This document shows, in pieces, positions 1 to 64,000 of a stretch of DNA of 64,000 bases. Each line of letters starts with the position of its first letter. The stretch's first letter is position 1. The stretch comes from Reclinomonas americana ATCC 50394 (Eukaryota). The stretch spans positions 124,555 through 188,554 of the forward strand of contig PS015071.1 in assembly GCA_048213135.1 (NCBI GenBank), read 5' to 3'. The notes under the pieces were generated by a model. It ran no database searches. It saw only the letters and a list, made by a program, of their open reading frames with translations, and was not told the DNA's origin. Both the position numbers and the translations under genes were made by a program.

Positions 1-280
1 GGAACAGGGGGAGGGACAAGGAACAAAGGGAAGGAACAGGGGGAGGGGGAAGGGACAGGGGGAAAGGAATGGGGAAAGGAATGGGGAAAGGAATAAGGGA
101 GAGTGTGAGAAGCGAGAGAAAAAGGAAGAGTGAAGCGAGAAGGCAGAGGACGATGAACAATAGAGAGATGGAGACAGCAGATGAACAAGGAGAGAGATGG
201 CAAAGCAGAGCAAAAAAGCAATCATCTATAGCAGGCAAGCATCACTCTTCTGTGTCTGTTCGCAAAAGCTCGCACGCAAC

Positions 281-1324
281 AGTAGTTAGGGACTGGATCC
301 GGTGGGAAGCCGGCAGAGTGGGTCTACAACGATGCATGCACGTAAGTGACAGCGGCTGAGAGATTAGCGAATGTATACTCAGCGCTCACCATGACATTCG
401 TGACGGTGATGGAGGCCTTGCCATTGACAGCAAACTGCGGTCCGAGGAGGCGCGGATCCGCAATCTTCCAGTCTGCGGAGAACAGCTGTTAATAAATGCA
501 GCACGAGGAGCTGATGAATTACGCACGAAAGATGCTCACCAAGGCCAAGCTCGCCGCGCTGCACGAATTGCGCGACAGCCGTGGTAGTGCTGAGCACCTT
601 GGTGCACGAGGCCATGTCGAAGAGGGTCTGTCACGCGGGGATGAACGGTGAGAAGACGACACAAGCATGCATTGTAAGCTCGCTCAATGTTCTTCTGCTC
701 GTTTCCCCACTCGCTGCGCTTGCTGCTCGTTTCCCCCACTCGCTGCGCTTGCTGCTCGTTTCCCCCACTCGCTGCGCTTGCTGCTCGTTTCCCCACTCGC
801 TGCGCTTGCTGCTCGTTTCCCCACTCGCTGCGCTTGCTGCTCGTTTCCCCACTCGCTGCGCTTGCTGCTCGTTTCCCCACTCGCTCTCGCTGCGCCTTGC
901 TCATTTCCCAGTCGCTGCGCTTTGCTGCTCGTTTCCTAGTCGCTGCGCTTGCTGCTCGTTTCCCCCACTCGCTGCGCTTGCTGCTCGTTTCCCCCACTCG
1001 CTGCGCTTGCTGCTCGTTTCCCCCACTCGCTGGGCTTCCGCTCGTTACCCATTCCATGCGCTTGCCGCTCGTTTCCACGCTTTCGCTCTTCTGCACATTT
1101 CCCGCACACACTATCGCTGCTGCTCTCCATCTCTCTCTTTTCTGCTCCCTCCCCCTCTCCTCTCCCTCTCCCTCTCCCTCTCTCCATCACCTTCCCCACC
1201 ACACACCTCATTCACATCCATTGCCGGATTGGTGCCCGTGACCGGCGCCGGCTGCCCATACGTGAAATGCCCGACTGCATGCGTAAACAAGAGGCCGCTG
1301 GCATTGCCGACCGCAGCCACCGCT
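281..1324 (-). CDS. Beta-lactamase-related serine hydrolase (SxxK family), partial; exons 1324-1207, 627-540, 472-390, 323-281
   Basis: Spliced translation AVAAVGNASGLLFTHAVGHFTYG...MDVNE|TLFDMASCTKVLSTTTAVAQFVQRGELGL|DWKIADPRLLGPQFAVNGKASITVTNVM|THSAGFPPDPVPNY. Has the F-x-x-A-S-x-x-K catalytic motif and the THSAG motif. The start lies in the N-gap at 1325 and the 3' end is off-window. Confidence 0.85.
694..1077. repeat. Intronic minisatellite, about 13 copies of a 27-29 bp unit CTCGTTTCCC(C)(C)ACTCGCTGCGCTTGCTG
   Basis: Head-to-tail copies without spacers, differing mainly in C-run length. Lies within intron 628-1206 of the serine hydrolase gene. Confidence 0.95.
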
Positions 1325-1367
1325 NNNNNNNNNNNNNNNNNNNNGCTGCGCAATCATCGTCAATAAA

Positions 1368-4300
1368 ATGGCGTCCTTTGCCTTGCGCGTCCGTGCAACC
1401 ATCGACGACCGCGCGCACTCTGTCACGCTCTCGCGGGACACTGCTGCGGGGATAATCCAGCTCGGCTCGACCTTGTCGGAGGCCGTGGAAGTGGCCGAGA
1501 TGCTGTTGGCGCGCTCGTGCGGCCGCGCCGGCTTTAATGTGCGCGCGGTGCAGGCGCCGGTTCCGTTTGCGCTGGAGCATGTGGGCGAGTTGACGCTGCG
1601 GCAGTTGGGCTTGCGTAGTGGCATGGAGCTGGTTGTGAGTGGCGAATGCACTTCTGATGACAATGTTCCGATGGCGACAAGCAGCAATGCTGTTGTTGCG
1701 GACGATGCTTTGGCGATTAACGATGGACGTGATCAGGCTGGCGATGTGGAGTCCTTTGATGGTGTGCTGGTGGCATTGAAAGCGGCGGCCAGTGACCCGC
1801 GTGCGACTGTTGTCGATGATTTGTTGCAGCAACTGGCGGAGAATTTGCGAGGCAGTTCGCGGCTGCGTCGGCGCATGATGGATGAGCATGGTGTGCCGGT
1901 GGTGGATCAGGTGCTGCGCAAGTTGTTTGAGTCGCGGAGCACTGTCGATGCCGTGTGTGCCGTCATTCGTGCCAACACACGTTGCGTTCCGGTGTCTTTT
2001 TTTGCAGTCGATCAGTAGCGCGCGGGTGTTTACCCTTTCCTGCAGTGGTGTTGGGCGACTTCCGCGACTGGGCGGCCGTCAATGTCAAGCCGCTGTACTG
2101 GAAGTGTGTGCCGCTGCTGGTCGACGCCATGCAACGGTATCACGAACACGCCGGGACGTGCGAGGCCGTGTGTGCGACACTGAGTCCGTTGGTGGCGAGT
2201 TGCGTCCTCGTGCCTGCGCTGTGTTTGTACGCGTCGTGTGTGACCCTGATCCTCCTCCTCCTCCTCCTCTCTCCCTCTTTCCCCCTTCTTCTTCTTGTCC
2301 TCCTTCTCCTCCTCCTCCTCCTCCTCCTCCTCCGCCTTACACCATCATCGACAGGTGGCAAGTCGGTGCCGCTGAAGAGTGTGATCGACGGCGGTGGAGC
2401 CGATCGCTTGATGCCCATTCTCCGCGAGCATCGCGTGGTGGCCGGCACCGTCATGTGGGCCAGCACGCTGATGGCTGACATTGCTGTGAGCGGTGCGTGT
2501 TTGCTTGTGTCTTTTTGCGCTCATTATCTCACGCCTCCTCGGACGCTGCAGATGAAGAAGCTCGCAATCGACTGGTCGCCAGTGGCGCCGTGGAACTCAT
2601 GTTGGAGTTGGCCCGTCATTTCACTGCCGTCGACCGCAAGACGCTGGCACAGATCTTGACTGCTCTCTCCAGTCTTCTCCAGCGTGCGTTTTGCGTGCAC
2701 TCTGCTTCCGCCTGGTCGCTGCTCACCGCTTTTTTCGACAGTCGACAGTTACAATGACGACGACGAGGAGGAGGAGGAGTACACTGAAGCGCAACGGAGG
2801 TTTGCTGACTCGAACGGCGTGGCCACGGTTGTCGAGACGGTGCTGCCACACTTGGAGGATCTGGAAACAATGCGCGCTGCGTCGTTTGTACTCGACGTGT
2901 TGGGCGGTACGTTGTGCAGTTCTCAGCATCCCGCTCCATTTTGTTTGTCATCACGCACGAGAATTCCTCCAGCTCCCGGAATGGCCGAGCCCATGAGCCT
3001 GACGGGGGGCATGAACTTGCTGGCTACCATTCTGCGCCTGCATGCAAGTGACGGTCACGTGGCGAGCATGACGGCGGACAACATTGCGAATGCTCTCGAA
3101 AGTTGTGATTCCTGCTCTTTGTGGATCACTTGCTTTTTTCGCTGTCTTTCTAACGTCCCCACTCCGGTTTGCAGTACACGCCAACCGCGCTGCCTTTCTC
3201 GAGGCCGGTGGCATTGCTGCACTGGCCGCCACCGTTAAAATGTACTCGGCAGAGCCAGGCATCGTTAGCCCGGCCATTTGCCGATGCCTGCCTCTCGTGC
3301 TCGCAGGTATTCCTCTCATTTTTTGAGCTGCCTGCTGTCATTTCCGTGTGACCACAATGGCGCGCGGGATTCTCTCTCGCTCGCAGACGACGCACATCGT
3401 ATGGAGTTTTCCGCGGCTGGTGGCATCCCGCCGCTGATTGCACACCTGGCCGAGTGCGACGTAGACGATTTGCACGCTGCGGTGCTGGCGGTGTACGCGG
3501 CAGTCGGTGATCGTACGTTCACTTGTTCGCTTGCATTCTCGCGCCAGGCATGTGAGCTCACGCAGGTCACAGTGGTTGAATGCATCGTCGCCTTCCTGGA
3601 GGACGGCGGGCTGCAGGTGCTCGTCGACCGACTGGCCGGCATTGATGACCCGGATGCCGCCGATTTGGCGCGCGATGCGTGCCTCGTCGTCGATCGGTGC
3701 CTTGTCGGTTGCGTTCTTTTTTGTGAAGAGGGGGTTCGTCTGTTGCATGGTGCCGACTGTTTGCGCGCAGCGTGCGCCGATGTGCGCCAGGAATTCGGCG
3801 AGGCCGATGGAGTTCAAGCCATGGTCGGATTGCTCCATCTGTTCTCGCCAGATCCTGTCACCGCAATGGTTGTTTGTGCAGCCTTGCGTTCTGCTCTGCG
3901 GGGTGCGTGTGCGTGTGTCTGTGTGTGCATTTGCTTCTTCTGTCGTTTCCGCACGCTGCTCACTATCCCTCCCCCTCGCGCAGCTTGTCCCGAGAATCGC
4001 GAACGGTTTGCGTTGGCTGGCGGGTGCGACGTCCTTGTGCAAGTGCTGAACTTGCACGTTGATCATCTTGATGCTCTGCTGGAGGCTTGTCAGTTGGCTT
4101 ACTCAGCCACTGCCGGTGTGTGAGAGAGAGAGAGTCATGTGCGGTTACACTGTCCTTGTCAAAGTGCTCACTTGTTGCAAGCAGACTGCAAAATCGGCCA
4201 GAGAGAATTCGGGTCGCATGGTGGCATCCCAGCTCTGTTTGCCATACTCGAGTCACCTGTGGCCACGACTGAGAATCCGCAGTTGCTCAGTGCAGTGGCA

Positions 4301-4746
4301 AACACGTTTGGCTGGGTCGTCAACGGTTTTGCTCGTCATCTCTCGCCTCTACTGCCCATGCCACACACTGCTCACGTCTCCTCCTCTCCCCCCCGCACAG
4401 TGAGTACCAATGCCGACTCTATTGTCGCTGCCAATGGTGCTGCCGCCCTGCTGCACCTATTTGATATGCTGGAGGATGATGTGTTGTGTGTCGCCATGCT
4501 GCTGGAGACAGTGACCTCATGCTGCTCGACGGATCGCGGTTTGTTTTATTGTGCTCGCACTGCGTATTGCCGTCTCTTCACACGATGCATTGGGATTGCG
4601 CCGCAGCCTCGGTTGCGCGACGCCAATTCGCCGCCGCCGGGGTGTGGAGCAGAGTGCTCGGTGTCATGCGGCGGCACATTGACGACCCCAAGCCGACCAT
4701 GGCTGCATGCTCGACGACAATCAGCTTGCTCAATGGTATGTGGATT

Positions 4747-4793
<47 letters not shown>

Positions 4794-5608: not shown

Positions 5609-6117
5609 ATGGCATCCTCGTCATCCGCCGTCCCGATGCAAGTCGACGATGCCAGTGGCGCATCGACAGTGCCGGCTATCGACGAGAGCCTCTACAGTCG
5701 ACAGCTGTATGTCGTGGGCGCAGAGGTACCCAAATCGAGACACACATCCACACTTAACAAGCAATGAGAAGAGACAAAATATGCACGCTGCACTGTGCGA
5801 GACAGTGAGGCAGCACGCAATGCAGGCAGCAGGCAGAGGGATGGAGACAACATGCATGTGTATTTTTAGCATGCGCTCATGCATGCTTCCTCAGGCGCAA
5901 CGGAAGCTGCTGCACGCCAATGTGCTCATCTGCGGACTGGATGGCCTCGGAGTTGAGATTGGTGAGTCTACGCGTGAAGAGGAAACAGAGAGAGAGAGGA
6001 AATCACTCACATTGTGTGTGTGCAGCCAAGAATGTCGCGCTGGCTGGTGTGCGCTCGATCACACGTTGCGTTGTACACTATGTGCACATGTATGTGTCGC
6101 GTTTTTGCAAGGTCGTT

Positions 6118-6157
<40 letters not shown>

Positions 6158-7684
6158 ATCAGTGCAAGACGATGCGGATGTGGTGGTGGCCGATTTGGGC
6201 ACACAGTTCTATGTGCGCGAGGGCGATGTGGGTCGCAATCGGGCGCTGGTGACGGTGCCGCGGCTGGCGGAGTTGAATCCGTATGTGAGGGTGAGTGGGA
6301 AGGGGAAAGGGGAGGAGAAGGGGGTGAAAGGAGAAGGGGAATGCAAGGAGAAGAGAAGGGAGGAGAAGGGGATGCAAGGAGAAGGGGATGAGAAGGGGAG
6401 GAGAAGGAGAAGGAGATGGGGAGAGGAGGGGGAGGAGAAGGGGATGCAAAGAGAGGGAGGGGAGGAGAAGGGGATGCAAGGAGAGGAGAAGGGGATGTAA
6501 GGAGAAGGAGAAGGAGCAGGGAAAAAGAAGGATAAGGGGACCTGGAGAGCGGAGGTGGTGTGATAAGAGTCGCACAAGGAGAACTGGAGAGGCGGAGAGG
6601 CGAGCTGCGGCAAGAGACGACAGAAGAGACATTGACACCGATATTCGGCGTTCTCGCAAGGAACACAGCGCCGGTTATAATCCTCAGAAACAGACCTGTC
6701 ATGCATTCCATCCTCCTGCAGTCACTTGTCTTCTATCTCTCCTCCTGGCTGCTTCCTTTTCCAACTCAGCAGTTCCGTCTCTTCTCGTTCTCGTCTTCTT
6801 CCCGTTCGACACCATTGAATTAACTTTCTCTTTTCCTCTTCTGTTGTCTTTTCTGCCCTAATCTTTCTGCTGTTGTCTCTTGTTTCTCTTGTCTCCTCTT
6901 GCCTTCTCTTCTCCTTTTCCCCTAACCCTTCTGAGAGCTTTCTCTCTTCTCTTGTCTCCTCTTGCCTTCTCTTCCCCTCTTCATTTCCCCCTTCTCAACG
7001 TCCCGCTGCACCTTGCCTTGTCTTTTTCTCTTCTCTTTCTTTTCTCTTCCTCTTCCCCTCTCCTTTCCCCCTTGCTGGACCTCGCCTTCTCTTTCTCCCT
7101 TCTCTTTCTTTGTCCTTCTCTTCCCCTCTCAGAGAAGTGCAAGCAGAACACAGTCGCAGACACTCTTCTCACATTGTGCGACGACTCAACAATCCCTCCC
7201 TCCCCTCATCCTTCCCCCCTTGTCCCCTTCCAGATCGAGCACTGCGCCGCTCAACTCCATGAACTGCCGCTGGACTACTTTTCACGATTCAAGTGCGTGG
7301 TCATTGTCGGCCAGCCGGTGCACAAGCTGTTCCGTATCAACGTGCACTGCCGCGAGTTGCGCTCCTTTCATCTCCCCCATTTCGAATCCCACTCTTCATT
7401 GCTAAATGTGGTACAGAAATGGAGTGGCGTTCATCGCCTGCCAGTGCCGCGGCGTGTTTCTGCAGGCGTTCAACGATTTTGGCGACGACTTTTACGTGTA
7501 CGACCAGGACGGCGAGGAGGCCGTGGAGATCTTCCTGCGCTCCATCTCCAACAGCGATCCCGGTGAATGCTGCGTACTCGAGCATCACCGGCACGGTCTG
7601 AGTGACGGCGATGTGGTGCGTTTCTCCGAAGTGCACGGCATGGTGGAACTCAACAGCACGGAGCACGTCGTCAAGGGTGAGTTC

Positions 7685-7764
<80 letters not shown>

Positions 7765-10700
7765 CGGAACTGGCATTCACCGCCTCTGTGTGTGTGTGTG
7801 TGTGCAGTCATTGATGCACAGACGTTCAGCATCGGGCCGACCGCGCACATGTCGCCGTACGAGCGCGGCGGCGTGGCCACGCAAATCAAGCAGGGCAAGC
7901 ACGTGAACTTTGTTGCGTTCGTGTCTCCCACGCTTCCACCCCTAGCTTTCCTCCATGGCTGACTTGTCCTTTTCCTACTTCTTCTCCGTCTTTCCTTTTT
8001 ATATTCTCTTTGTCTCCTTTCTTCTTCTCGACTTATTCCTCCTCCTCCTGCTCCCTCTCCTCCTGTCCTTTTCCTTCTCCTTCTCCCTCTCTCCCTATAC
8101 GTCTCCCTCTCTCCCCTCTCCCTCACCCTCACCCTCTCCCTCTCCCGCTCCCGCTCCCTCTCCCTCTCCCCTCTCCCCTCTCCCCTCTCCCCTCTCCCTT
8201 TCTCCCGCACGTCCGACAGACGTCACTGGCGCGCTCGCTGGAGACAGCCACCTTGTTTGAGGACTTTATGATTGCCGACTTTGCCAATGTCGACCGCTAC
8301 ATGGTGCTCCACGAGGCGTTCCACGCCGCGGGTCTTGTTGGTATGCCGTGCTGTGTCGATCTTTTTTTATATTTGGCCTTGTCACTCACCACCGTCACTT
8401 CGTCGCAGCTCCACGGCCGTGGAATGCAGAGGATGTCGAAAAAGTCTGCAAAATTATGCCTCACGGCGCAGAGGTGTGGTGACTCGTGTTCCATGGCAAC
8501 ACCTTCTCCTATCTCCTCACGCTCTGCGCGTCGTTGCTCAGCTCTCGGTGGCCGATCGTGCCACAGTGGAGCGCCTGTGCGGCGTGTGGCAGGCGCAGCT
8601 GCAGCCGCTGGCGGCCTTTGGGGGTGGATTTGTCGGGCAGGAGGTCATCAAGGCGGTGACTGGCAAGTTCACGCCGCTGAAGCAGTGGGTGCGTCATATT
8701 GTCCACCGATGTTCGTGCACAAGTGCACACGCAATGGACTCATCATCCTGTTGCACTCTCGCAGTTGTACGTGGATGTGGAGAAAATCATGGCATCCGCG
8801 TCCGTCATGGCGGCCACTGCGCCGCGAGGCGATCGTCTCGACCACCTGCGCCTGTGCATCGGCGACGAGATGGTGGAGAAGCTGTCGCAGGCGCGCCTTT
8901 TCATGGTCGGTGCTGGTGCGATTGGTTGCGAGCTGATCAAGAATTTTGCGTTGATGGGCGTCGGAAGCGGCGAGCGCGGTCTCATTCGAGTCACCGACAA
9001 CGACATGATTGAGCTGAGCAACCTCAATCGCCAGTTCCTCTTCCGTCAGGCGGACATTCAGGTTGAGTCCAACACTTGGTTGGGGGAAGAATGACTGTGG
9101 AGGAGCTGACACCATCGTCGCACAGAAACCCAAGTCGGCGACTGCGGTGGCCGCCGCTCTCGACATCAATCCGCAGCTCCATGTGGCCGCCGATGTGAAT
9201 CGAGTTGGCGAGGAGACGGAAAGCATCTACACCGACAGCTTCTTCGAGAGCATGGATTGCATTGTGAATGCGCTGGACAATGTGGCGGTGTGTGGCTGAA
9301 CTGTGTGAGTGCGCCACATGATCTCTTGTACCGCTGACATTCTCTCCATGGCACAGGCTCGTCTGTACGTGGACTCGCGGTGTGTGGCCGCCGAGCGACC
9401 GCTGCTGGAGAGTGGCACGCTCGGCACGAAGGGGCACACGCAGATCATTGTGCCGCACCTCACCGAGTCGTACGGCAGCCGTCGCGATCCCCCGGAAAAG
9501 GTCGGTAGTGTACTTCTCCTACTCCCATCTCGTCGTGGACGACTCACCGTTGTCTCACGACGCAGGAAGTGCCGTTTTGCACGCTGCGCAGTTTCCCGGC
9601 CGTGATCGATCACACGATTCAGTGGGCACGCGACCGCTTCGAGAACATGTTCAAGAGCAAGCCGGAGGAGTTCTCGGTGGGTCCATCCATGCCTTTCCGT
9701 CCTCTTTCTCTCGTTTCTTTTCTCTGTCTCACACTCCGCGCAGCGCATGCTGAGCGACCCCGATGCGTACGTGCGAGAGATGCGCAGTACGAGCGCCGAA
9801 GGAGCGCGCAATGCACGCTTTGTGGAGCGCCTGTGCCGCAAGTTCCCCCGGTCGTTTGCCGACTGCGTGCGCTTTGCCCGACAAAAGTTCGAGCGCATGT
9901 TCAACCACGCCGCCAAGCACCTGCTGACCGTATTCCCGCCCGACAAGCGAATGGAGGATGGAAGTGCGTGGAGGGCGCTTGTCGCCCCTTTCTCTCCGCT
10001 CTTGTCTCTCATCATCGATCGTAGGTCTGTTCTGGACGCTGCCGAAGCGACAGCCGACGCCGCTGGAGTTCGACGTCAACGACGACCTGCATCGCGAATT
10101 CGTCATGCACTGCGCGCTGCTGCAGGCCAGTGTGTTCTCCATTGCCGATGTGCCCGCCGATGTCGAGGCGTTTGTGCGTGAGGTGAGTGTTTGTGTATCG
10201 ACACTTTCTGTGCATCACACAGTGTCTCACTGGAATGTCTGCGTAGTTTGCGCCGACCATCGAAGTGCCGGAGTTTGTGTTCTCCGATGCCAAGAAGGTG
10301 GAGACCGACGAGTCGGTCACCAAGGCGACTGCGGGTTCGTCGTCTTCGTCCTCATCGGCGGCTGATGACTCCACCATTGGAGCCGTGATTGACCGAGTTG
10401 CGTGTGAAGGGGAAAGGAGGGGGAAGGGAGAGGGGGGAAGGAGAAGGGGGAGGGGGAGGAGAAGGAGAAGGGGGAGGAGAAGGAGAGGGAGAGGGGAGAG
10501 GGAAGGGGAGAGAGAGAGAGAGAAGAGGAGAGGGAGAGAAGGAGGAGAGAGAAGAGGAGAGGGAGAGAAGGAGGGAAGATGGACGAGGGAAGTGGAAAAT
10601 AGAAGCAAGAGAGAGAGGGAGAGGAGGAGATGAGAGGGAGAGGAGAAGATGAGAGGGAGAGGAGAAAGGAGAGGGAGAGGGGAGAGGGAAGGGAGAGAGA

Positions 10701-12327
10701 GAGTGGAGAGAGAGGAGAGGAGAAGAGGAGAGGGAGAGAAAGANNNNNNNNNNNNNNNNNNNNNNNNNNNNNNNNNNNNNNNNNNNNNNNNNNNNNNNNN
10801 NNNNNNNNNNNNNNNNNNNNNNNNNNNNNNNNNNNNNNNNNNNNNNNNNNNNNNNNNNNNNNNNNNNNNNNNNNNNNNNNNNNNNNNNNNNNNNNNNNNN
10901 NNNNNNNNNNNNNNNNNNNNNNNNNNNNNNNNNNNNNNNNNNNNNNNNNNNNNNNNNNNNNNNNNNNNNNNNNNNNNNNNNNNNNNNNNNNNNNNNNNNN
11001 NNNNNNNNNNNNNNNNNNNNNNNNNNNGGAAGAAGGACGAGGGAGAGGACGAGGAAGATGGAGAGGAAAGAAGGAACATCAACGATGGAGACGGGATGAG
11101 TGGAATAGGGGCATTGAGAAAAGGAGACAGAAGAGATTGGGGAGAGGAAACAAGGAAAAGGGAGAGTTGACGACTGACGCTAAGGGGAAAGTGAGAAGAC
11201 TGAGCAAGGATGTGGGCCACGACGTCAATCCTCTGCACTCTATTAACATTCTCCCTTATCGTCACAGCTCGCCGCCGCCGCCCCGTCACTACCCCGTGAG
11301 CTGGCGGTGAATCCACAGCCTTTCGAAAAGGTTCGATTGTCAACCGTCCTCGCTTTATTTGTTCCCTGCCATCCTCACGACAGGGGTGCAGGACGACGAT
11401 CGGAACCATCACGTTGACTTTATTCACGCGGCGTCGAATCTGCGTGCGCGGAGCTACGGCATCCAGGAGGCCGATAGGTGCTCATCTCTCGCAGTCCATG
11501 CTGGTGATGCAAACCTTCTCTCACTCCCTTGTCTCTCGCGCAGGGGCAAGACCAAGCGCATCGCAGGTCGCATCATGCCGGCCATTGCCACCACTACGGC
11601 AGCCGTCTCCGGCCTGGTACGCTGACACGAATGTTTGCTCCTTGCTCGTCGTTTTATTTTGTCGCTCATGATTGCGAGTTTGCAGGTGAGCATCGAGTTG
11701 ATCAAGATCCTGCGTGGTGATCCGCTCGAGTCGTACTGGTGTGCGTTCATGAACCTGGCGTTGCCGATGATGAATGTGGTCGAACCGGGTCCGGCACCGC
11801 GTGTTCGCATGTCGAGCCGCGCAACGTTGCGTTCTTTTCTGTCTGTCAGTGGGTGCTGCAAGACGTTCGTGTTGCTGACTGTGTGTGTGTGTGTGTACAC
11901 AGCTTCACGCTGTGGGACACCATCAAGGTGCGCGAGGGCGACATGACGCTGGCCAACTTCCGCCAGTACTTTGAGGTGATTTACTGCGTGCGTGTTTGTT
12001 TGCGTGTTTACGGTCGCTCATCGGATGTGAATAACAACAAAATAGGACAAGTACGGCGTGACGATCAAGTCGTTCACCGAGGGCAATCGACCCGTGTGGT
12101 TCTCCTTTAACCCGAAGCATCGCAAGATGCTGAGCGACAAGTTGCGCTCTCATCTCGGTTATTTGTGTGCGTCTCGCACACATGTTCATCTGCTTGTTTT
12201 ACGCAGGATGAGCAAATTGTGCAAGAGTGTGGGCGACGGCGGCTACACAATGCTAGATGTGGTCGGCGTCGATGCAGAGACAGGCGAAGAGGCCACTATT
12301 CCTCGTGTTCGTCTGTACCTGCGGTAA
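5609..12327 (+). CDS. UBA6: Ubiquitin-activating enzyme E1, UBA6-type; 24 exons
   Basis: [63 protein letters not shown], catalytic Cys (9578-9580) in [61 protein letters not shown]. PFCTLxSFP, GHT, KTKRIAG and VSGL match UBA6 rather than UBA1 as I recall them. E1 identity is near certain; the paralog call is less so. Confidence 0.85.
7687..7762. repeat. (GT)n microsatellite in an E1 intron
   Basis: Perfect dinucleotide run. Confidence 0.95.
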
Positions 12328-45400: not shown

Positions 45401-46801
45401 ATGAGCAGAGGAGAGGGCTCGTGAACTGCTGGAGGTATTGAGCATCTTACACGTGGGATTGTTGGTACAGACTTTACCGCGAGTGTGGTCCATCTCATCA
45501 AGTTGCAACCATCAACTGCTCGGATCACGGCATCGCCGAGCACGACTGGGGCCGGCTCTTCCGCCTCGGTGTCGAAAGCTGTCGCGCAGCTCAACAGCGG
45601 AGCGACGTACTACTTCCGTGCGGTGACTGTGCTGTCCGACTCGACAGTGCTTACCGGATCGACACTGTCCTTCACGAGTGCGTCTGCGCGTGTGTATAAT
45701 ATTTGTGATTGATGGACTGCGATGCCTGACACATGCCGTGGTGTGGAATGCAGCAACTGGCGCACTGACGACAGGATTCTCGCCGACGTCGATTGCAGCG
45801 ACGACGAGCAATGTGCAGATTGTGGTGACTGGTGTGAACTTGTTGGCGAGCGATGTGGTGCAGGTGGAGTCGGGGGCAACGTGCAGCGGCAGTGGGACGG
45901 GGCTGACACACGTGTCGGTGTCGAGTGATGCTACAATCAAAACAGTCAAGACGCCGAGCCCGTCGACGGCACTGACGAATGGATTGTACTCTGTGTGGTG
46001 CGTGGCTGTTTGAGGAAGAGAGAGAGAGAGAGAGTGAGAGGTAAGGAGATAGGAAAGGGTAGAAGGAGCAGATGAAGATGGAGGAGGAGGAGAGAGAGGG
46101 CGAGAGAGGGAGAGAGAGAAAGAGGAGGAGGTGGAGAAGGAGAGAATCGTGGAACTCGGTGCGCTGTCTGACGTTTTTTTGTTGTTGATGTCACTGTTTT
46201 TTTTGCTGTTGTGCGTGTTCAGTTACTTGTACGGAGGCGTGGGAACGGCAGAGCGTGTCGGAACGACGTCGCTTGTTGTCGGGAATGGTTTGTTGGGTTG
46301 GTGGAGGCAGTTTGCCTGTTGTCGCTTGTCGATGATTGAATCTCTCTCTCTCTCTCCTCCATCTCGTGGATGCGACAGCTGCACTTGCGACGAGCAGCGG
46401 GGCGACAGCCGTGTCTACGTACTCAGCTACGGTGAATGGGTCGATCACGAACAACTCTGGTGCGACGAGCAGCAATTATTTCGAGTTGGCGCGATCGAGC
46501 AGTGATTTCACGACAGCGTCGTCGGTGACGACGTATGCTGGTACGCTGGGCACTCCTGGAACGACCAATGGACCACTTGCGAGTGCGCTGTTCAATGATC
46601 CGCGAGTTATGTCTCTGATGTTTCATATGTTTTGCAACCGATCACGAATGATGCTTCTCCTGACACTTGATTTTCGTGATGTGTTTGCACTGCAGGGCAT
46701 TGTTGGCGACTCTGAAGGCAACTTGTACCTTGTGGAAGCAGTGTTGCGTGCTTGTGCTGCGTCTTGCGCTGATGAGCAGGCGATAAGTTGTCGCTGAATC
46801 A

Positions 46802-51718: not shown

Positions 51719-54700
51719 TCCTTCTGCATACATACACATTTAGATTAGCGATGTGCACCATTCGATCTTGTCTCGCCATCCTCCTGTAGCCTTGCATTGT
51801 GTCCCTTTTGACTCGAGATCCCCGTTGCTACTGCATTTTTTCACCTCTACTTATCTGTTGGACCTTTGCCGTCTGCGTCTCTGTGAACTCACCCATCGTT
51901 TGAACACAGACCGGAAGCAATGCCATTCGACGAGTGTCGTCGACTGGGTACACGAGAACACTGGTCACGAGCAGCAGTGCGACGCCGGCTCCAGATTTCA
52001 TCTACGCTGTGGTGTACGACGCGGGTAACGAGGTGTTGTACTTCTCCGAGAATAACAAGCATACTGTAAGGTGAGTTGCGCAGGAAGTGAATAGTAGAAC
52101 ATTAGATAGTGAAAGGGAGTGGAGCATGCGTTCTTGTGTTGGAGCGTGCGTGTTCCTTGAGCAACATTTGCAGTCGTCTATGTTTAAGATGCTCTTCTGC
52201 TTCTCCGTGCGTGTCGTTGATACGTCAGTCGGAGATGAGATGGGTCAACTCATTGCTTCCACTTTGCTGTATGTTTGTGCCAGGCGTGTGAACGCAGACG
52301 GCTCGTCCATCACTCTGCTGTGTGGTCAATACGGTACTGCTGGTGGCGCCGACGGTAACTGCTCAACCACCACACCAACATTCAACCAACCCGCCGGGCT
52401 CGCTCTCGACATGTCAGTCAACAAGCTGTACGTGGGGTCACTAAGTGGTCGTAAGGTTCGGCAGCTGGACTTGGCGGCCAGTCCAATGCAGCTTGGCACT
52501 CTTGTCGGCCAAGACACTCAAGGGTACGCTGTGGGTCCCGCTGCATCTGCCAAGTTTTTGGATCCACGCACGCTGTACCTGGATGAAGTGCGACGGACTC
52601 TGTACATTTCTGATCTGGGATATGGAATTAAGCAATTGGATCTCAACAGCATGGTCGTGTCAGCTCTCACTGTGCCTGCACTGGGTGTGTCGTCAGTGGA
52701 TGGGCTGTTGACAGATGCGGTTTTGCCGTTACCGGTGCGTGCAAATTGTGTGTGTGCGTTTGCAGAAGAGAGAGTTTGACACACAGAGAGAGGGAGGGAC
52801 AACGCTTTTGCGTCTGTGCAACTCCTGAGTGCCATGCAGTGTGTCGCACTGTGTGTTACTGATGTTCTTCTCTTTTACAGTTTGGCATGTACTTGGCGCA
52901 AGGCAATCGACTTTATGTGACCGGTTAGTTTGAGATTCGGTTTCTGCTGATAGCCATTGTCCCGCTCACTGTGATTCTTTGTATTAGAGTTTTCTGGTAC
53001 TCCTGGAGCTGGTAACATCATTCGATTGATCACGCTGCAGCCTGGAGAGTGCCGAATCACTGCCGGTCCATCGACAAGTGCGTCTGGAACAACCGCCAGC
53101 ATTAGTGACGGCCTGTCGCAGCTGACGCCTGGATCGGCCAACTATTTCCGTGCGGTGACTGTGCTGTCGGACTCGACTGTGGTGGCTGGATCGACGCTGT
53201 CGTTCACGACGAGTTGCGTTGGCGGAGTGGGTGGTTCCCTTTGCATAACTGTTGTTGACTTTGCTCTCGTCCCGCGTCGTGATTAGATGTGGCGCCATCG
53301 GCGACGAGCTTTTCGCCGAGCAGCATTACTGCAGAGACGAGTGGCGTGCAGATTGTTGTGACGGGCACTGCGTTGGTGACGTCGGATGTAGTGCAAGTGG
53401 AACTGGGAGCGGACTGCACTGGCGCGGGTACAGCGCTGTCGTCGGTGTCTGTGAGTGGGGATGGAACGACGAAGACTGTGCAGACGAGTGGCGTGTCACT
53501 GGCAGTGGGATTGTATGCGGTGTGGTGCGTTTGTGATGGGGAGAAGCAAGAGAGAGTGAGAGAGAGAGAGGAGAAAATTCAGGGAGGCGGAGAGGGATGC
53601 GAAAAGTCGATACATGAGATTTAGTGCGTTGTTTGCGTGTTTTATTAAGAAAATGAGGGAGGCGATGAGGAGGAAAGAGGTGAGTGTTGTTAGAGGATGT
53701 AGTTGTTGTGTTGGGTGTTTGCATTGACGAGTAGCTGGCGTCAATAGATAGACAGTGTGGAGCAAGATGAAAGAGGGGGAGTTGGAGTATGGCATCNNNN
53801 NNNNNNNNNNNNNNNNNNNNNNNNNNNNNNNNNNNNNNNNNNNNNNNNNNNNNNNNNNNNNNNNNNNNNNNNNNNNNNNNNNNNNNNNNNNNNNNNNNNN
53901 NNNNNNNNNNNNNNNNNNNNNNNNNNNNNNNNNNNNNNNNNNNNNNNNNNNNNNNNNNNNNNNNNNNNNNNNNNNNNNNNNNNNNNNNNNNNNNNNNNNN
54001 NNNNNNNNNNNNNNNNNNNNNNNNNNNNNNNNNNNNNNNNNNNNNNNNNNNNNNNNNNNNNNNNNNNNNNNNNNNNNNNNNNNNNNNNNNNNNNNNNNNN
54101 NNNNNNNNNNNNNNNNNNNNNNNNNNNNNNNNNNNNNNNNNNNNNNNNNNNNNNNNNNNNNNNNNNNNNNNNNNNNNNNNNNNNNNNNNNNNNNNNNNNN
54201 NNNNNNNNNNNNNNNNNNNNNNNNNNNNNNNNNNNNNNNNNNNNNNNNNNNNNNNNNNNNNNNNNNNNNNNNNNNNNNNNNNNNNNNNNNNNNNNNNNNN
54301 NNNNNNNNNNNNNNNNNNNNNNNNNNNNNNNNNNNNNNNNNNNNNNNNNNNNNNNNNNNNNNNNNNNNNNNNNNNNNNNNNNNNNNNNNNNNNNNNNNNN
54401 NNNNNNNNNNNNNNNNNNNNNNNNNNNNNNNNNNNNNNNNNNNNNNNNNNNNNNNNNNNNNNNNNAGAGAGACTGCACTCTCTATAAAACACACGAAGGT
54501 TAACACACCAACAGTCAGCGTCCCCGGCACAGTGCTCCACAGTCCCGTTCCTCCAAACTGGATGCTGTGGAGATCGAAGAAGTCAGTTTCGTATCAAATC
54601 CGCTCNNNNNNNNNNNNNNNNNNNNNNNNNNNNNNNNNNNNNNNNNNNNNNNNNNNNNNNNNNNNNNNNNNNNNNNNNNNNNNNNNNNNNNNNNNNNNNN

Positions 54701-58794: not shown

Positions 58795-61474
58795 GCCCGT
58801 CCTCTCGTGGGCGCAACAGCTGCACTTGCGACGAGCAGCGCGGCGACTGCTGTGGCGACATTTACGGCGACTGTGAACGGGTCGATCACGAACAACTCGG
58901 GTGCGGCGAGTAGCAACTATTTCGAGTTGGCACGATCGAGCAGCGACTTCACGACAGTATCGTCTGTGACAACGTATGCTGGTACCCTGAACACTCCTGG
59001 AACAACCAATGGTCCACGAGCGAGTGCGTTGTTCAATGATCCGCGAGTTTCGTCACTGTGCCGTTCATCATTGCATGTGTCTTGTCACCGTCGGAAATGT
59101 TATTTCTCCTGACGGTTGTGATTTACCGTGATGTGATGCAATTGCAGTCCATTGTTGGCGACTCGGATGGCAATTTGTTTATTGTGGAAGCAGGGTTGCG
59201 TGCTTGTGCTGATTTTTTTTGTATTTTACAGGCCGGCGATCTCACTGAAACATACCATCTCTTTTCCCTCGCATCGTGTGTCTTTACTCTCGCGCAGCAA
59301 CAACTGCATCCGACACATTGACGTTTCGTCGGGCATGGTGTCGACATTTGCTGGTGTTTGTGGAGCTACTGGTGCGTTTGTCGATGGTGCGGCGACTACG
59401 GCGCGGTTCAACGGGTGTGTGTATGGTTTTGTGGATTTGAGAATATTTTTTCGAGGATGCATGCCTGACATGGTGGACGATCATATTCGTTTTGTGTATG
59501 CAGCCCGCGAGGCCTTGCCATTGATCTCGTGTCGAGCACATTGTTTGTTGCTGATGTGCGTGATTAGGGTCGCGCGATTTCTGTTTTCTCTCTCTCTCTC
59601 TGCACGATTTAGATCCCCTGTTCCTGTATTGCCGCCTTCCTGTGGCTTTGCACTCCGTTGCTTTGTGTTGTTGTTACTTGGGTCCCCTTTGTTTGTTCGG
59701 TTTTGTTCAGCTCTGCTTGACTGTGAGATGTTGGGCATCTCTGTCTCTCTGATCTCACTTATCCTCTGAGGCAGTCGGCAAATAATGCCATTCGACGGGT
59801 GTCTTCGACTGGTTTCACGACGGCGTTGATCACTAGCAGCAGCGCCACGCCGGCTCCAGATTTTATCTACAGTGTGGTGTACGACGCGGGCAACCAGGTG
59901 TTGTACTTCTCCGAATTCAACAAGAATACTGTGCGGTGAGTGGCGCGCAGCAAGCAGATATGTTGCAACAGAGCAATGGGATGTGTGAAGGAAGGTAGAG
60001 CGTGTGAGTCAGAAAGAGTTGCTTGATAAGTGTCAGCAGTTGTCATTTATTGCGGCTTTCGTGAATGTGGTACCATTCCCTCTCATCAGCGTTTGTCGCT
60101 GATGCGACAGTCGGAGATGGAATGCGTCGACTCATGCCTGTGTATTTGTGTCTTTGTCACAGGCGTGCGAATGCCGATGGTTCGTCGATCACACTGCTGT
60201 GTGGTCAATACGGTACTTCTGGTGTCGCCGATGGCGACTGCTCTACCGCCACACCAACGTTCATCAACCCCGGCGGGCTAGCATTGGATTTTTCAGCCAA
60301 CAAGCTGTACGTGGCATCGACAAGTAACCACAATGTTCGTCAGCTGGACTTGGCGGCCACGCCGATGCAGCTCGGCACTCTTGTGGGCCAGATTGCCCCT
60401 GGATATTCCGTGGGTCCCACTGCAACTGCCCAGTTCCTCGATCCACGCACTCTGTATCTGGACCAAGTGCGACGGATCCTGTACATCGCAGACGCTTCAG
60501 TCGGCATCAAGCAACTGGATCTCAACAGCATGGTCGTATCAGCTATTACAGTGCCTTCGCTGAGTGTACCTTCTGTGGATGGGTCGTTGACGGAGGCTGT
60601 TGTTGAGGCACCGGTGCGTTGACATCTCATGAGCGTGGCAGAATTGGGCAGAAAATTATAGTGGGTTGTGTGTGTGTTTGTTTGTGTGTGTGTGTTTGTT
60701 TGTTTGTGTGTTTGTGTGTATGTGTATGTGTGTGTGTGTGTGTGTGTTTGTCAACGTTACGTGTGCGTGTAACTGATATGTGCGCACGTGTATCTGTACT
60801 GCAGTTTGGCGTGTACTTGGCACAAGGCAACCAGCTTTATGTGACTGGTGAGTCGACGATTCGATTTTCTGTTGATTGCGACTGTGCTGCTCACGGTGTT
60901 TCTTTCTATCATCAGAGTTTGTCAACGGTCCCGGTTTTGGTAACACGATTCGGTTGATTACGCTGCAACCTGGAGAGTGCCGAATCACTGCCGGTCCTTC
61001 GACGAGTGCGTCTGGAACAACCGCCAGCATCAGTGATGCACTGTCGCAGCTGACGCCTGGATCGGCCAACTATTTCCGTGCGGTGACTGTGCTGTCGGAC
61101 TCGACTGTGGTGGCTGGATCGACGCTGTCATTCACGACGAGTTTCGTTGGCGGAATGTGTGGTTCCCTTTGCGCAGCTCTTGTTGATGTACGCTTTTCCT
61201 TTCGTCCCATCTCAGATGTGGCGCCATCGGCGACGAGCTTCTCGCCGAGCAGCATTACTGCGGAGACGAGTGGCGCACAGATTGTTGTGACGGGCGCTGC
61301 GTTGCAGGCATCAGATGTAGTGCAAGTGGAACTGGGAGCGGACTGCACTGGCGGCGGCACAGCGCTGTCGTCGGTATCAGTGAGTGGTGGTGGAACGACG
61401 AAGACTGTGCAGACGAGTGGCGTGTCACTGGCAGTGGGATCGTATGCAGTATGGTGCGTTTGTGATGGAGAAAA

Positions 61475-61948: not shown

Positions 61949-62913
61949 TGGCTTCGGCGGAGTCGTTTACTCCATCGACGATTACACCGAATACGGCTGG
62001 GCAGACAGTGACGGTAACGGGGCGCGCATTGTCAGCAAGTGATACTGTGCGATTGGTGTCCGGCGGAACGTGCGTGAGTGGCACGACGACGTACAACATG
62101 ACGAGTGGAGCGTTGGGTGGATCGGCTGGAGCGCGTACGCTGACTGTGTCGACGGGCAACACCAGTTTGGCGGCCGGATCGTATCTCGTGTGGTTCGCTC
62201 ACTGCATTCATTTTTGATTCTCCTTGTGCAGTACTTGTGTGTCACCCTCGTGTTTGTGTTTGCAGTTACTTGTACGGCGGAACGGGTACGCCAGTGCAAG
62301 TTGGCAGCACGTCTTTAACCGTTGCAACAGGTGTGTTCTATGTTGTATCACTTTGCATCCATTTTCCCGCTTTTCACTCTCTCCTTTGGCAACAGGAACA
62401 AGCGTGACGAGCTTTACGCCGAGCAGCATCACTGCGGAGACGAGTGGAGTGCATGTGACTGTGAGTGGCAGTGGTCTGGCGGATGCGGATGTGGTGCAAG
62501 TTCAGAGTGCGGGATCGTGTACGGGTGCTGGCACCGTGCTGTCTCTCGTTTCGACGGCTGCCGATGGACTGACCACGATTCGGCAAACGACGAGCACGTC
62601 GCTTGCGGCGGGATCGTACTGGGTGTGGTGCGTGTGTTTGTGTCGTTTGGATTGGAAGACATGCATGTGTGCAACGAGCGAAGAAGCGTTCGTGCTTTAG
62701 CAAGCAAGCAAGAGAGTTAGAGAGAGAGAGAGGGAGAAGAAGATCTACGAACGAGATTGCATGTTTCGTCTTGAACTGATCACACTGGCGTGTGCTTTCT
62801 CTCCAGCATTCACTTTGCGAGCGCGGGTGCGGGTGTCTGGCAGCAAGTACCAGGCGTACTGACAGTAGGTGCGTGTCTGTGTGGCATGTGTTGAACTGAG
62901 AACTGTCACCCTT

Positions 62914-62949
<36 letters not shown>

Positions 62950-64000
62950 CGTCTGCGTTTTTTTATGTAGATGCTCATGCTGATTTTGATGTGTGATGTG
63001 CAGTGGCGTCGGCGGAGTCGTTTTCTCCGTCGACGATTACACCCAACACGGCTGGCCAGACGGTGACAGTGACTGGGCGAGCATTGTCAGCAAGTGATGC
63101 TGTGCGATTGGTGTCTGGTGGCACCTGCGTGAGTGGCACGACAACGTACAACATGACGAGCGGAGCAGTGGGTGGGTCGGCTGGAGCTCGCACGCTGACC
63201 GTGTCGACGGGCAACGCCAGTCTGGCGGCCGGATCGTATCTCGTGTGGTTCGTTTCTGCGTTCATTTTTTTGTTTCTCTTCGTGCACTGCTTGTGTGACA
63301 ATCCTCGTGTTTGTGTTTGCAGTTACTTGTACGGCGGAACAGGGACGCCAGTGCAAGTTGGCAGCACATCGCTTCTCGTCAGCAACGGTGAGTTCATTTA
63401 CTCATGATAATATTAGCCAGCACACATGATTATTGACTGTCGTATTCTCGATCGTATCAGCGTCGTCGGCAACGACAAACGCCGCGTCAGCAGTGTCGTC
63501 GCTCACTGCGACACTGAATGGCCTGGTCACCAACGTTTCTGCGTCGGCGAGCAACAACTACTTTGAGCTCGCGGTCGACAGCGGGGATTTCTCGACGGCG
63601 TCCGCGGTCAGCACCTTTGCTGGCAGTTTTGGCACACACGGCTTCAAGAACGACGACCGACTGCATGCGATATTTAATCAGCCGTGGGTGAGTGTCAGTG
63701 GCTAAGTTTGTCGCTGTTGTTCGGTGTTAAATTGCTGACTTACACATGTGTGTTGTGTTGTGTTGTGTGTGAGTAGGGAATGACTTCGGATGCACGTGGC
63801 AATCTGTATATCTCAGACTACACGTTGCGTAGATGTCTGTGTGCGACACTGCTGTTATGGTGCCATGTGTATTAACTTTGGTGAATGTGCGGGGTGTGCA
63901 GCAATCAATGCATCCGATTTGTCGACATTCACTCTGGAGATGTGTCGACATACACTGGCGGATGTGGCCAGACGCACGACTATGTGAACGGCGGTCCGTC
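42460..64000 (+). CDS. Giant secreted or surface protein with repeated FN3-nested NHL beta-propellers and IPT/Ig-like domains; runs off the window
   Basis: Signal-peptide exon 42460-42532 (MRRHALPLLFLSLLCIACVAHVAY, phase-1 GTGAGT donor) joins the phase-1 acceptor at 43315. NHL blades such as FNDPRGIVGDSEGNLYLVEAVNNCIRFIDVSSGMVSTFAG. FN3 ends such as QLTPGSANYFRAV...GSTLSFTT. IPT-like starts such as TSFSPSSITAETSGVQIVVTG. Confidence 0.85.
50114..51391 (-). other. Inverted, probably misplaced contig carrying the first half of an A-type FN3/NHL module
   Basis: Its reverse complement begins GGTCTGGTCACCAAC and ends TGCACTCTGA, which abut exactly the two edges of gap 56476-56671. Confidence 0.85.
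54790..63560 (+). repeat. Intragenic super-repeat (A-a-B-b-c-d-c'), apparent period about 7 kb (about 8 kb once the undersized gap is filled), introns included
   Basis: 54790-56475 is near-identical to 61870-63520 in exons and introns. 44806-47150 corresponds to 56672-59560. B-module copies near 48335, 52285 and 60165. Confidence 0.9.
57867..58337. repeat. Compound intronic microsatellites (GAGAG)n, (GT)n, (GA)n, (GCT)n, (GTT)n
   Basis: Directly visible runs within one intron of the giant gene. Confidence 0.9.

Follow-up and report, generated by a model that had tools for sequence, protein, structure and literature searches.

The window analysed here, a single stretch of 64,000 nt from Reclinomonas americana ATCC 50394 (GCA_048213135.1, PS015071.1:124,555-188,554, forward strand), contains, besides introns with ordinary donors, many introns that seem to begin with GT, one extra base and an otherwise usual donor tail (class 2 donors). 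This raises the question of whether class 2 is a genuine kind of 5' splice site and, if so, how it might be read by the spliceosome. The motif (GT + one base + G/A/T-C/A/T-G-T/C) was found at 36 of the 36 donors listed in an earlier note on this DNA, as well as at the two sites the note considered likely additions (17516 and 19320). The heptamers among the 36 sites were GTTGCGT (23), GTTGCGC (5), GTTGAGT (2), GTTTCGT (2), and GTTGAGC, GTTAAGT, GTCGCGT and GTTATGT (one each). The motif exceeds the expectation from composition: counting both strands, the window has 39 copies of GTTGCGT compared to 12.58 ± 3.59 in 100 dinucleotide-preserving shuffles, a 3-fold excess that none of the shuffles (0/100) reached. 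Within predicted gene chains, GTTGCG[TC] was found 33 times in sense and 12 times in antisense orientation.

The class also emerged unsupervised. EM with the donor position latent, applied to 136 introns predicted by a donor-blind intron chain finder (first pass), separated a G/GTGCGT-like class (73%; the slash marks the exon-intron boundary) from an A/GTTGCGT class (27%, weight 0.27), whose columns were +3T (87%), +4G (87%), +5C (79%), +6G (96%) and +7T (66%); T at +8 and C at +9 were weakly favoured. In this class the conserved G and U are displaced to +6/+7, +5 being mostly C. The two-class model raised the log-likelihood from 449.7 to 568.4 with 37 extra parameters; antisense decoys gained only 44.8, and no GTTGCGT-like class emerged from them. 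The sequence evidence confirms class 2 (GT-T-GCGT versus the ordinary GTGCGT) as a real, sharp and distinct type of predicted 5' splice site in the window, accounting for roughly one in four to one in three of its introns: 27% in the EM above, 33% when the EM was restricted to intron columns, and 27 of 119 introns by strict pattern in a second pass (the same finder with the learned donor model). The earlier manual estimate was one intron in four to five, our own estimates being one in three to four. The ordinary class comprises G/GUGCGU, GUGAGU, GUACGU and similar donors; the class-2 consensus is (C-R-A)/GUUGCGU, with cleavage predicted ahead of the first G of GUUGCGU, and a single base distinguishes the two (AG-G-UGCGU, ordinary; AG-U-UGCGU, class 2).

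Boundaries in the ubiquitin-activating enzyme E1 gene were set by spliced alignment of 12 homologues, using a protein-to-genome aligner that demanded only GT/GC..AG. The count of seven class-2 introns among the 23 of this gene was upheld, as the homologue alignments chose the class-2 starts and the frame remained open once the 23 introns were removed (a single open frame of 1018 codons, 43-44% identical to E1 proteins). The junctions at 6065, 7912 and 9062 were gap-free in the comparison with 10 homologues, and at 12141 the window row was gap-free with one gap among the homologue rows; a boundary displaced by one base, or an exon longer by one codon, would not fit at these sites. Free to pick GC, the aligner took GT at the class-2 sites, except at 11826, where a GC three bases downstream (11829) was preferred in 2 of the 12 alignments. 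The weakest of the seven sites is 10397, where conservation is poor and the intron contains an N gap.

Across the window, at least one independent line of support was found for 29 of the 36 listed sites (Table 1). The donor-blind finder supports 17 and the second pass 21 (union 23); beyond these passes, 7912 is supported by homology and 46606, 46743, 53213, 59047 and 59195 by paralogue alignments, while at seven candidates the motif is the sole support. Both likely additions were recovered, 17516 in both passes and 19320 in the second. The Ndc80/HEC1 gene on the minus strand was identified by a PF03801 match on the exon 33602-33781; in the second pass its chain is broken at the 33174..33180 donor. 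At seven paralogous sites (alignments A1 and A2), conservation breaks or indels occur at the proposed boundary, and in the 53213 copy the upstream frame stops there and the next exon sequence turns up in a separate ORF. The predicted introns at 49401 and 61141 are 75 nt long, and an open ORF reads through the 61141 copy in frame. Some class-2 sites are paralogous copies and hence not independent.

Table 1 The E1 gene and the class-2 donors of the window. Positions are those of the window; on the minus strand the higher coordinate is the first intron base, by which the site is named. Both passes, donor-blind and second pass; new, absent from the earlier list.
Feature	Positions	Strand	Support and remarks
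Ubiquitin-activating enzyme E1 gene, 23 introns, 7 class 2	5615..12326	+	spliced alignment, 12 homologues
E1 donor GTTGCGT	6065..6071	+	12/12 homologues; gap-free junction vs 10 homologues
E1 donor GTTGCGC	7356..7362	+	10/12 homologues; both passes
E1 donor GTTGCGT	7912..7918	+	6/12 homologues (7903 in 2/12); gap-free junction
E1 donor GTTGAGT	9062..9068	+	12/12 homologues; gap-free junction; both passes
E1 donor GTTGCGT	10397..10403	+	1/12 homologues; second pass; keeps E1 frame open
E1 donor GTTGCGT	11826..11832	+	10/12 homologues; both passes
E1 donor GTTGCGC	12141..12147	+	7/12 homologues; both passes
Donor GTTGCGT	1981..1987	+	second pass; donor-blind pass took in-frame GT 12 nt upstream (1969)
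Donor GTTGCGT	2199..2205	+	second pass
Donor GTTGCGT	3708..3714	+	both passes
Donor GTTGCGT, new	17274..17280	+	both passes
Donor GTTGCGT, new	17377..17383	+	both passes
Donor GTTGCGT	17516..17522	+	both passes
Donor GTTGCGT	19320..19326	+	second pass
Candidate donor GTTGCGC	21843..21849	+	motif alone; adjoins N gap
Donor GTTAAGT	22041..22047	+	both passes
Donor GTTGCGT	23168..23174	+	both passes
Candidate donor GTTGCGT	24251..24257	+	motif alone
Candidate donor GTTGCGC	24392..24398	+	motif alone; both passes took 24379
Donor GTTGCGT	24869..24875	+	both passes
Donor GTTGCGT	25465..25471	+	both passes
Donor GTTGCGT	26200..26206	+	second pass; donor-blind pass took 26182
Donor GTTGCGT, new	38073..38079	+	second pass
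Donor GTTGCGT	40007..40013	+	both passes
Candidate donor GTTGCGT	41145..41151	+	motif alone
Donor GTTGAGT	43542..43548	+	both passes
Donor GTTGCGT	43677..43683	+	both passes
Class-2-like donor GTCGCGT, extra base C	43867..43873	+	second pass
Class-2-like donor GTTATGT, paralogue of 59047	46606..46612	+	A2: indels, divergence start just past site
Donor GTTGCGT, paralogue of 59195	46743..46749	+	A2
Donor GTTGCGT, paralogue of 53213 and 61141	49401..49407	+	both passes; A1
Donor GTTGCGT	53213..53219	+	A1; 1-nt indel within intron of this copy
Class-2-like donor GTTTCGT	59047..59053	+	A2
Donor GTTGCGT	59195..59201	+	A2
Class-2-like donor GTTTCGT	61141..61147	+	donor-blind pass; A1
Candidate donor GTTGCGT	63824..63830	+	motif alone; close to window end
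Candidate donor GTTGCGT	274..280	-	motif alone
Donor GTTGCGT, new	27595..27601	-	both passes
Candidate donor GTTGCGT	29886..29892	-	motif alone
Donor GTTGCGT, Ndc80/HEC1 gene	32044..32050	-	both passes
Donor GTTGCGC, Ndc80 gene	32863..32869	-	both passes
Class-2-like donor GTTGAGC, Ndc80 gene	33174..33180	-	donor-blind pass: one chain 31818-33781 spans site

Apart from the donor, class-2 introns resemble the others. Their median length is 70 nt compared to 69.5 nt for ordinary introns; the branch motif CT[CG]A[CT] (CTSAY) lies 6-40 nt before the AG in 16 of 25 class-2 and 58 of 82 ordinary short introns, counts biased upward equally in both classes because the finder rewarded the motif; and C precedes the acceptor AG in 21/25 and 76/82, respectively. 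The GT..AG ends of the predicted class-2 introns follow from the construction of the search, the E1 aligner allowing GT or GC. When the interiors of all 119 predicted introns were compared with one another by blastn (E<1e-3), there were four non-self matches, none of them between two class-2 introns; the sole match involving a class-2 interior covers 18 nt. The common length, branch motif and acceptor, together with the lack of mutual similarity, indicate that the predicted class-2 introns are ordinary U2-type GT-AG spliceosomal introns and not a repeat family. U12-type (minor) introns have a [AG]TATCCTT 5' end and a TCCTTAAC-like branch site; this type was rejected for class 2, given its GTTGCGT consensus and its branch motif and acceptor, which are as in ordinary introns.

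The last exon base bears on how U1 may engage these sites. The previous tally over the 36 sites (A 19, G 6, T 6, C 5) was reproduced exactly, and the 33 sense-strand GTTGCG[TC] gave A 15, C 7, T 7 and G 4. The reported lack of -1G in class 2 was confirmed in E1, using homology only (1/7 versus 13/14 at ordinary donors; Fisher p = 0.00085); the contrast in the second pass (3/27 versus 66/92) is partly circular, since this pass used exon columns. The -1 composition of class 2 is like that of ordinary -2 (A>C~T>G), and in the second pass 16/27 class-2 donors have C at -3 and 19/27 have A/G at -2. With the donors and classes set on intron columns alone, a shifted mapping of the exon columns outscored a same-register mapping by 10.4 nats, a gain that came entirely from -1, and did not improve on background composition (-188.1 versus -189.1); what the exon columns say about the register thus comes down to "no -1G, some -1A". 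As to the suggested association with -1A, A is the commonest base (15/33) and G is depleted, but the shifted mapping equals background. The missing -1G and A-rich -1 modestly fit U1 binding in a +1-shifted register, where the exonic AG would be replaced by A(-1)G(+1), and the C at -3 fits either register.

The reading we favour, with a probability of about 0.5, is that these are real U2-type donors which U1 binds one base out of step (+1 shift) before a hand-over to U5/U6, a shifted U1 appearing to be the most likely mechanism. U1 snRNA would bind the class-2 site as a rigid block, with A(-1) and G(+1) standing where exonic A(-2) and G(-1) normally do, and with GCGU at +4 to +7 in the positions of +3 to +6; the only new mismatch would be the U in the canonical +1 G slot. 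U1 would mark the site only roughly and, after the hand-over, cleavage would take place at the GU that lies one base 5' of the junction in the U1 register, with the U6 ACAGA helix formed on +5 to +7 and one intron base looped out, as cleavage would need. The near-invariance of class 2 compared to the loose ordinary class would suit a site compensating for a mismatch or loop. More tentatively, the spliceosome may routinely (in about 1/4 of introns) cleave six, not five, nucleotides upstream of the G pairing with U6 C42, after U1 has bound one base off-register.

U1 might instead pair with the exon and with G+1/U+2 in the usual register, with one U (+2 or +3) bulged and GCGU at +4 to +7 pairing as +3 to +6. 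The C at -3 and A/G at -2 would then pair unshifted with U1 G11 and U10, which we take to be their partners in the normal register, and the number of base pairs would equal that of the shifted model. Such a bulge is known from human donors (PMC4856993). It predicts, however, -1G at least as frequent as at ordinary donors, and -1G was neither kept nor strengthened in E1 or among all sense sites (4/33); with the 10.4-nat deficit of the same-register mapping, this makes a bulge rather unlikely. The earlier proposal of shifted or bulged recognition is partly supported: there is a distinct GT-AG donor class lacking -1G, and the shift is only modestly favoured over the bulge. If the U1 5' end were canonical, GUUAAGU would presumably be the best shifted site; it was found at only 1 of the 36 sites and GUUGCGU dominates, so canonical U1 pairing alone does not explain the class-2 consensus. 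The ordinary class is likewise unexplained by such pairing alone, GTGCGT leading and GTAAGT being absent from the listed ordinary donor hexamers. A dedicated or altered snRNA reading the sites unshifted (a U1 paralogue with an extra 5'-end base, perhaps with an altered U6, U5 or protein, giving two U1 specificities) would suit a class this sharp (GTTGCGT in 23/36), whose preferred sequence is probably not optimal for canonical U1 whatever the register, and the ordinary preference for GTGCGT over GTAAGT hints at a non-canonical U1 5' end. We consider it improbable, as hardly any variation is known in the U1 5' end or in the U6 ACAGAGA box across eukaryotes; an Rfam search of the 64-kb window gave no match and no snRNA gene.

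Misplaced boundaries are a further explanation, the true donor being the GC three bases downstream or a nearby in-frame GT, or there being no intron, with GTTGCGT a frequent word of coding sequence or of intron starts rich in T and G. The GC at 11829, the two 75-nt introns with one copy read through in frame, the choice of 1969 for 1981 and of 26182 for 26200 by the donor-blind finder, and the 7/36 sites identified by motif alone speak for it. Against it, the GT was picked by 10-12 of 12 homologues at four E1 sites, three E1 junctions are gap-free and a fourth has a single homologue gap, leaving no extra codon, and the 1018-codon frame is open only with the class-2 boundaries; moreover, the motif is in excess over shuffles and sense-biased, the class arose unsupervised and was absent from decoys, and the 53213 copy carries its 1-nt indel in the proposed intron, where the upstream frame ends. 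An artefact is very improbable. The GC-AG donor was rejected, there being no space for an extra residue at 6065, 7912, 9062 and 12141 and GC being chosen in 2/12 alignments only at 11826. Finally, the uniform donors and the weak +8 T/+9 C preference might reflect copies of one mobile "introner" family bringing an odd 5' end; the absence of blastn matches between two class-2 interiors, and lengths and 3' parts like those of ordinary introns, make this extremely improbable.

The shifted-U1 reading has counterparts in human cells, where experiments have established both shifted and bulged registers of U1 (PMC4856993); that paper agrees with what the earlier note cited as known of human donors (+1-shifted register, bulge +2/+3). 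The +1 register was described by Roca and Krainer (2009, per PMC4856993; test oligonucleotide ACA/GUCAAGUAUA). Like class 2, these human sites have GU, an extra base and the usual tail, with G and U moved from +5/+6 to +6/+7, an A and not a G as last exon base, and cleavage (predicted for class 2) at the GU situated one base before the junction implied by U1 pairing. They are, however, rare and have an AAGU tail, whereas class 2 makes up 25-33% of predicted introns here with a GCGU tail; all validated non-canonical registers together account for 1.5% of 201,541 human donors (PMC4856993). Human bulge +2/+3 sites (68 predicted, 54 after curation; Roca et al. 2012; Tan et al. 2016, PMC4856993) share the GUU + RAGU-like tail form and show that the U1:5'ss helix can accommodate an irregularity of one nucleotide, as is proposed for class 2, but -1G, which should persist under the bulge model, is not retained in class 2. 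U1 defines the site only roughly and U5/U6 fix cleavage (PMC11162779), and the same source gives experimental support for one non-canonical U6 register, at the tandem donor of STAT3 exon 21. There, as proposed for class 2, the G-U for U6 C42/A41 lies off +5/+6, which implies that the distance from the cleavage site to the ACAGA helix is flexible. STAT3 differs in being one site only, whose pair is nearer by a base (+4/+5); in class 2 it would be one base further away (+6/+7), and in a large fraction of introns. By inference, U6 may take part in class-2 recognition.

If the spliceosome does routinely cleave six nucleotides upstream of that G after off-register U1 binding, the U1 and U6 registers would be naturally bistable in this organism, perhaps via a changed snRNA or Prp8/U1-C, and it would be the first organism with non-canonical 5' splice-site registers as a major, selected mode instead of rare exceptions, offering a natural system for how the cleavage site is measured. 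No published description of a comparable lineage-wide donor class was found in the literature. Lineage-wide departures of other kinds include the GC/GA donors of dinoflagellates and the non-canonical introns of Oikopleura/Fritillaria and diplonemids. As in class 2, a whole lineage there tolerates a donor that is rare elsewhere; in those lineages the terminal dinucleotide is altered, whereas class 2 keeps GT-AG and alters the spacing of the downstream consensus.

The claim that seven of the 23 introns in the ubiquitin-activating enzyme E1 gene begin at class-2 donors (GT plus one extra base, nearly always T, followed by a GCGT-type tail) was upheld by a protein-to-genome aligner that used no donor matrix and demanded only a GT or GC donor and an AG acceptor, run with 12 E1 homologues: removal of the 23 consensus introns leaves one open frame of 1018 codons with a terminal stop. 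Around each junction, a 15-residue alignment with 10 homologues has no gaps at 6065, 7912 and 9062, a single gap, among the homologue rows, at 12141, and a gap-free row for the window itself at 11826. As the well-conserved E1 junctions are near gap-free, neither a cut displaced by one base nor the extra codon of a GC donor fits; a GC donor three bases downstream was ruled out at four E1 sites by the homologue choices and the junction alignments. The G at the last exon base (-1), which this class had been said to lack, is present at 13 of 14 ordinary and only one of seven class-2 E1 donors placed by homology only (Fisher p = 0.00085). The ordinary class (G|GUGCGU, GUGAGU, GUACGU and similar) is very loose, much looser than class 2. 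Five weak E1 donors without G at +5 (5726, 9501, 11331, 11478 and 11976, + strand; sequences GTACCC, GTCGGT, GTTCGA, GTGCTC and GTGATT, all with G at -1) are backed by 10-12 of the 12 homologues.

Genes of the window and class-2 donors placed in E1 by protein homology.
Feature	Position	Strand	Evidence
Ubiquitin-activating enzyme E1 gene	5615-12326	+	Protein homology
Class-2 donor	6065	+	12/12 E1 homologues
Class-2 donor	7356	+	10/12 E1 homologues; junction in gapped region
Class-2 donor	7912	+	6/12 E1 homologues; 7903 instead in 2/12
Class-2 donor	9062	+	12/12 E1 homologues
Class-2 donor	10397	+	Only 1/12 E1 homologues; non-conserved stretch, N gap in intron, gapped junction
Class-2 donor	11826	+	10/12 E1 homologues; GC three bases downstream in 2/12
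Class-2 donor	12141	+	7/12 E1 homologues
Ndc80/HEC1 kinetochore gene	31818-33781	-	PF03801, E = 9.8e-16 on exon 33602-33781
Arm-like repeat gene	1.4-5.6 kb		Pfam match under curated cut-off
fn3-containing gene	near 40 kb		Profile match
Tandem copies, repeat-rich surface-protein-like gene	43-64 kb		Weak NHL match

Homology-guided intron mapping was confined to E1, since the further genes had no usable homologues: none was found for the Ndc80 coiled-coil exon at E<=1e-5 or for exon 26029-26199, and exon 40070-40513 matches only short stretches in giant proteins. Searching metagenomes with an E1 exon yielded 12 loci, none above 57% identity; the nine that were aligned contain four introns in total and no class-2-like donor, and, being AT-rich (19-26% GC) and nearly intron-free, they were dropped as comparison relatives.

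Donor classes were then sought window-wide without a donor model. A plain codon-usage chain finder was too weak and was replaced by one that also weighed intron length, through a prior, the branch motif and, as acceptor context, the base before AG; GT was its only donor rule, and its codon usage was learned from E1 and then updated by iteration. This donor-blind finder predicted 136 introns once chains with a score below 20 had been discarded. An EM with the true donor hidden among every in-frame GT leaving the frame open (mean 3.2 candidates per intron) reached a log-likelihood of 449.7 with one matrix and 568.4 with two (37 extra parameters), the two classes being G|GTGCGT-like (weight 0.73; -1G 59%, +5G 63%, +6T 51%) and A|GTTGCGT (weight 0.27; +3T 87%, +4G 87%, +5C 79%, +6G 96%, +7T 66%; -1 composition A47 C20 T17 G16). 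On 128 antisense decoy sets, a second matrix gained 44.8 and no class-2-like class appeared. A second pass with the learned donor model, partly circular and used for descriptive comparison only, gave 119 introns from chains scoring at least 25: 27 follow the strict class-2 pattern and three more have GTTGCGA. These predicted donors with A at +7 lie at 12430 and 18037 (+) and 31351 (-); that at 12430 falls downstream of the stop codon of E1 and could be a spurious prediction or an intron of the 3' UTR.

The motif is present at all 36 sites claimed in the earlier note, 23 of them exact GTTGCGT, and at its two further candidates (17516 and 19320), and a recount of the last exon base reproduced its tally (A19 G6 T6 C5); these site counts come from one 64-kb window and include paralogous copies. 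Seven of the 36 are supported by the motif alone, and a frame check of the unsupported sites, one by one, found compatible acceptors too numerous to single out introns. GTTGCGT exceeds compositional expectation, with 39 occurrences compared to 12.58 ± 3.59 in 100 dinucleotide-preserving shuffles, none of which reached 39. Within predicted gene chains, GTTGCG[TC] occurs 33 times in sense and 12 in antisense, and the dinucleotide most often preceding TGCGT is GT (39), followed by GG (30), the latter corresponding to ordinary G|GTGCGT. Judged from sequence, we place the probability that class-2 donors are real at roughly 0.85-0.9.

Several other origins for the pattern were weighed. A homopolymer sequencing error converting GTGCGT into GTTGCGT was dismissed on the reasoning that errors would neither track the last exon base nor preserve reading frames. 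Class-2 and ordinary introns are alike in median length (70 vs 69.5, second pass), branch motif (16/25 vs 58/82), C before AG (21/25 vs 76/82) and GC content (0.53 vs 0.54), and an all-against-all blastn of intron interiors returned four non-self matches, none joining two class-2 introns, which excludes an introner family. The common features and the lack of interior similarity indicate that these are ordinary U2-type introns, belonging neither to the minor spliceosome nor to an introner family. Intron phases 0/1/2 in the second pass were 9/9/9 for class 2 and 41/37/14 for ordinary introns (small numbers, without significance test).

The paralogous copies give a further view of the proposed introns. 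In alignment A2 (pairs 46606/59047 and 46743/59195), the copies are near-identical and free of indels up to the proposed donors, past which indels of 9, 1, 2 and 35 nt are found until the proposed acceptors. In alignment A1, a 1-nt indel lies within the proposed intron of the 53213 copy, whose upstream frame stops at that intron and whose next exon sequence is found in a separate ORF; consequently, an intron is required there. The proposed class-2 intron at 49401-49475 and 61141-61215 (+) is 75 nt in both copies, and in the 61141 copy an open ORF reads through it in frame; as retention would add 25 residues, the 49401 and 61141 introns could be optional.

Aligned on the tail, the two consensus sequences are identical but for a single base (AG-G-TGCGT vs AG-T-TGCGT). 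The earlier note had proposed shifted or bulged recognition: in the shifted form U1 binds one base out of step, A(-1)G(+1) replacing the exonic AG; in the bulged form the exon register is normal and one U is bulged at +2/+3. G is also scarce at -1 when every sense-strand GTTGCG[TC] is counted regardless of gene model (A15 C7 T7 G4 of 33), and in the second pass the class-2 -1 position (A14 C5 T5 G3) resembles the ordinary -2 position (A38 C26 T19 G9); C occupies -3 in 16 of 27 class-2 donors, compatible with either register. When the EM was repeated on intron columns alone, leaving exon bases without influence on class assignment, the class-2 exon columns fitted the ordinary profile better shifted by one (-188.1) than unshifted (-198.5), but did not surpass background (-189.1), the ordinary positions -2 to -4 being nearly flat. 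This exon-side pattern points, only moderately, to U1 being shifted rigidly by +1 rather than to the bulged U; the exon-side G signal would have moved onto the +1 G of the intron itself. We regard the shifted register as the best reading of class-2 donors, at about even odds. The canonical U1 5' end is best matched by an A-A-G-U tail. Among the ordinary hexamers listed in the second pass, GTGCGT is foremost and GTAAGT absent; base composition, or an snRNA that is non-canonical, may underlie the preference of both classes for G-C-G-U over A-A-G-U. Rfam at gathering thresholds found no match within the 64-kb window.

During splicing, U1 binds first and approximately, and U5/U6 decide later; how the exact phosphate to be cleaved is selected remains under debate, on the evidence of a few human and yeast sites. 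According to the STAT3 report (PMC11162779), every cleavage observed earlier lay five nucleotides upstream of the G that pairs with U6 C42/C48, and no alternative U6 register was known until STAT3, where the pair is one base closer. The class-2 GU at +6/+7, if paired with U6, would instead lie one base further, lengthening the spacing by one base in a large share of introns. Both the shifted register and the bulge at +2/+3 are described for human donors in PMC4856993, which gives 68 predicted bulge +2/+3 sites (54 post-curation), GUU+tail donors numbering in tens and 3119 validated non-canonical registers of all kinds, 1.5% of 201,541 donors; class 2, in contrast, makes up about a quarter of the window's predicted introns. 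A literature search of limited coverage found no lineage-wide GT+1 donor class. If true, an organism whose consensus lies one base further from the cut in a quarter of introns would make hundreds to thousands of introns available as natural tests, and such abundance would predict a specific adaptation or unexpected tolerance in U1, U6, Prp8 or U1-C. Gene finders with a single donor matrix would misplace class-2 boundaries; the donor-blind pass itself misplaced those at 1981, 2199 and 26200.

The window is intron-rich eukaryotic sequence (GC about 42-59%, numerous N gaps), with introns mostly of 55-80 nt, branch motif CT[CG]A[CT] and acceptor CAG. Three of the six predicted introns of the Ndc80/HEC1 gene are class 2 or class-2-like. 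Choanoflagellate transcriptomes are among the best E1 matches; over its full length the protein is no more than 43-44% identical to those of many different holozoans, so E1 gives no closer placement of the organism. The gene copies at 43300-64000 (+) share 81-94% DNA identity, introns included, and carry weak-NHL repeats followed by many near-identical short 'SFSPSSITAETSG...VTG...' exons. A tandem array of GCTGCGCTTGCTGCTCGTTTCCCCCACTC-like units of ~29-30 nt occupies 690-1030 (+), with low-complexity sequence rich in purines and pyrimidines on either side (1-230 and 1130-1200). Many introns contain long (GA)n, (GT)n, (CTC)n or G/A-rich runs (e.g. 6291-7233, 7677-7807, 4741-4800), and the commonest heptamer in the window is GAGAGAG (424 occurrences).
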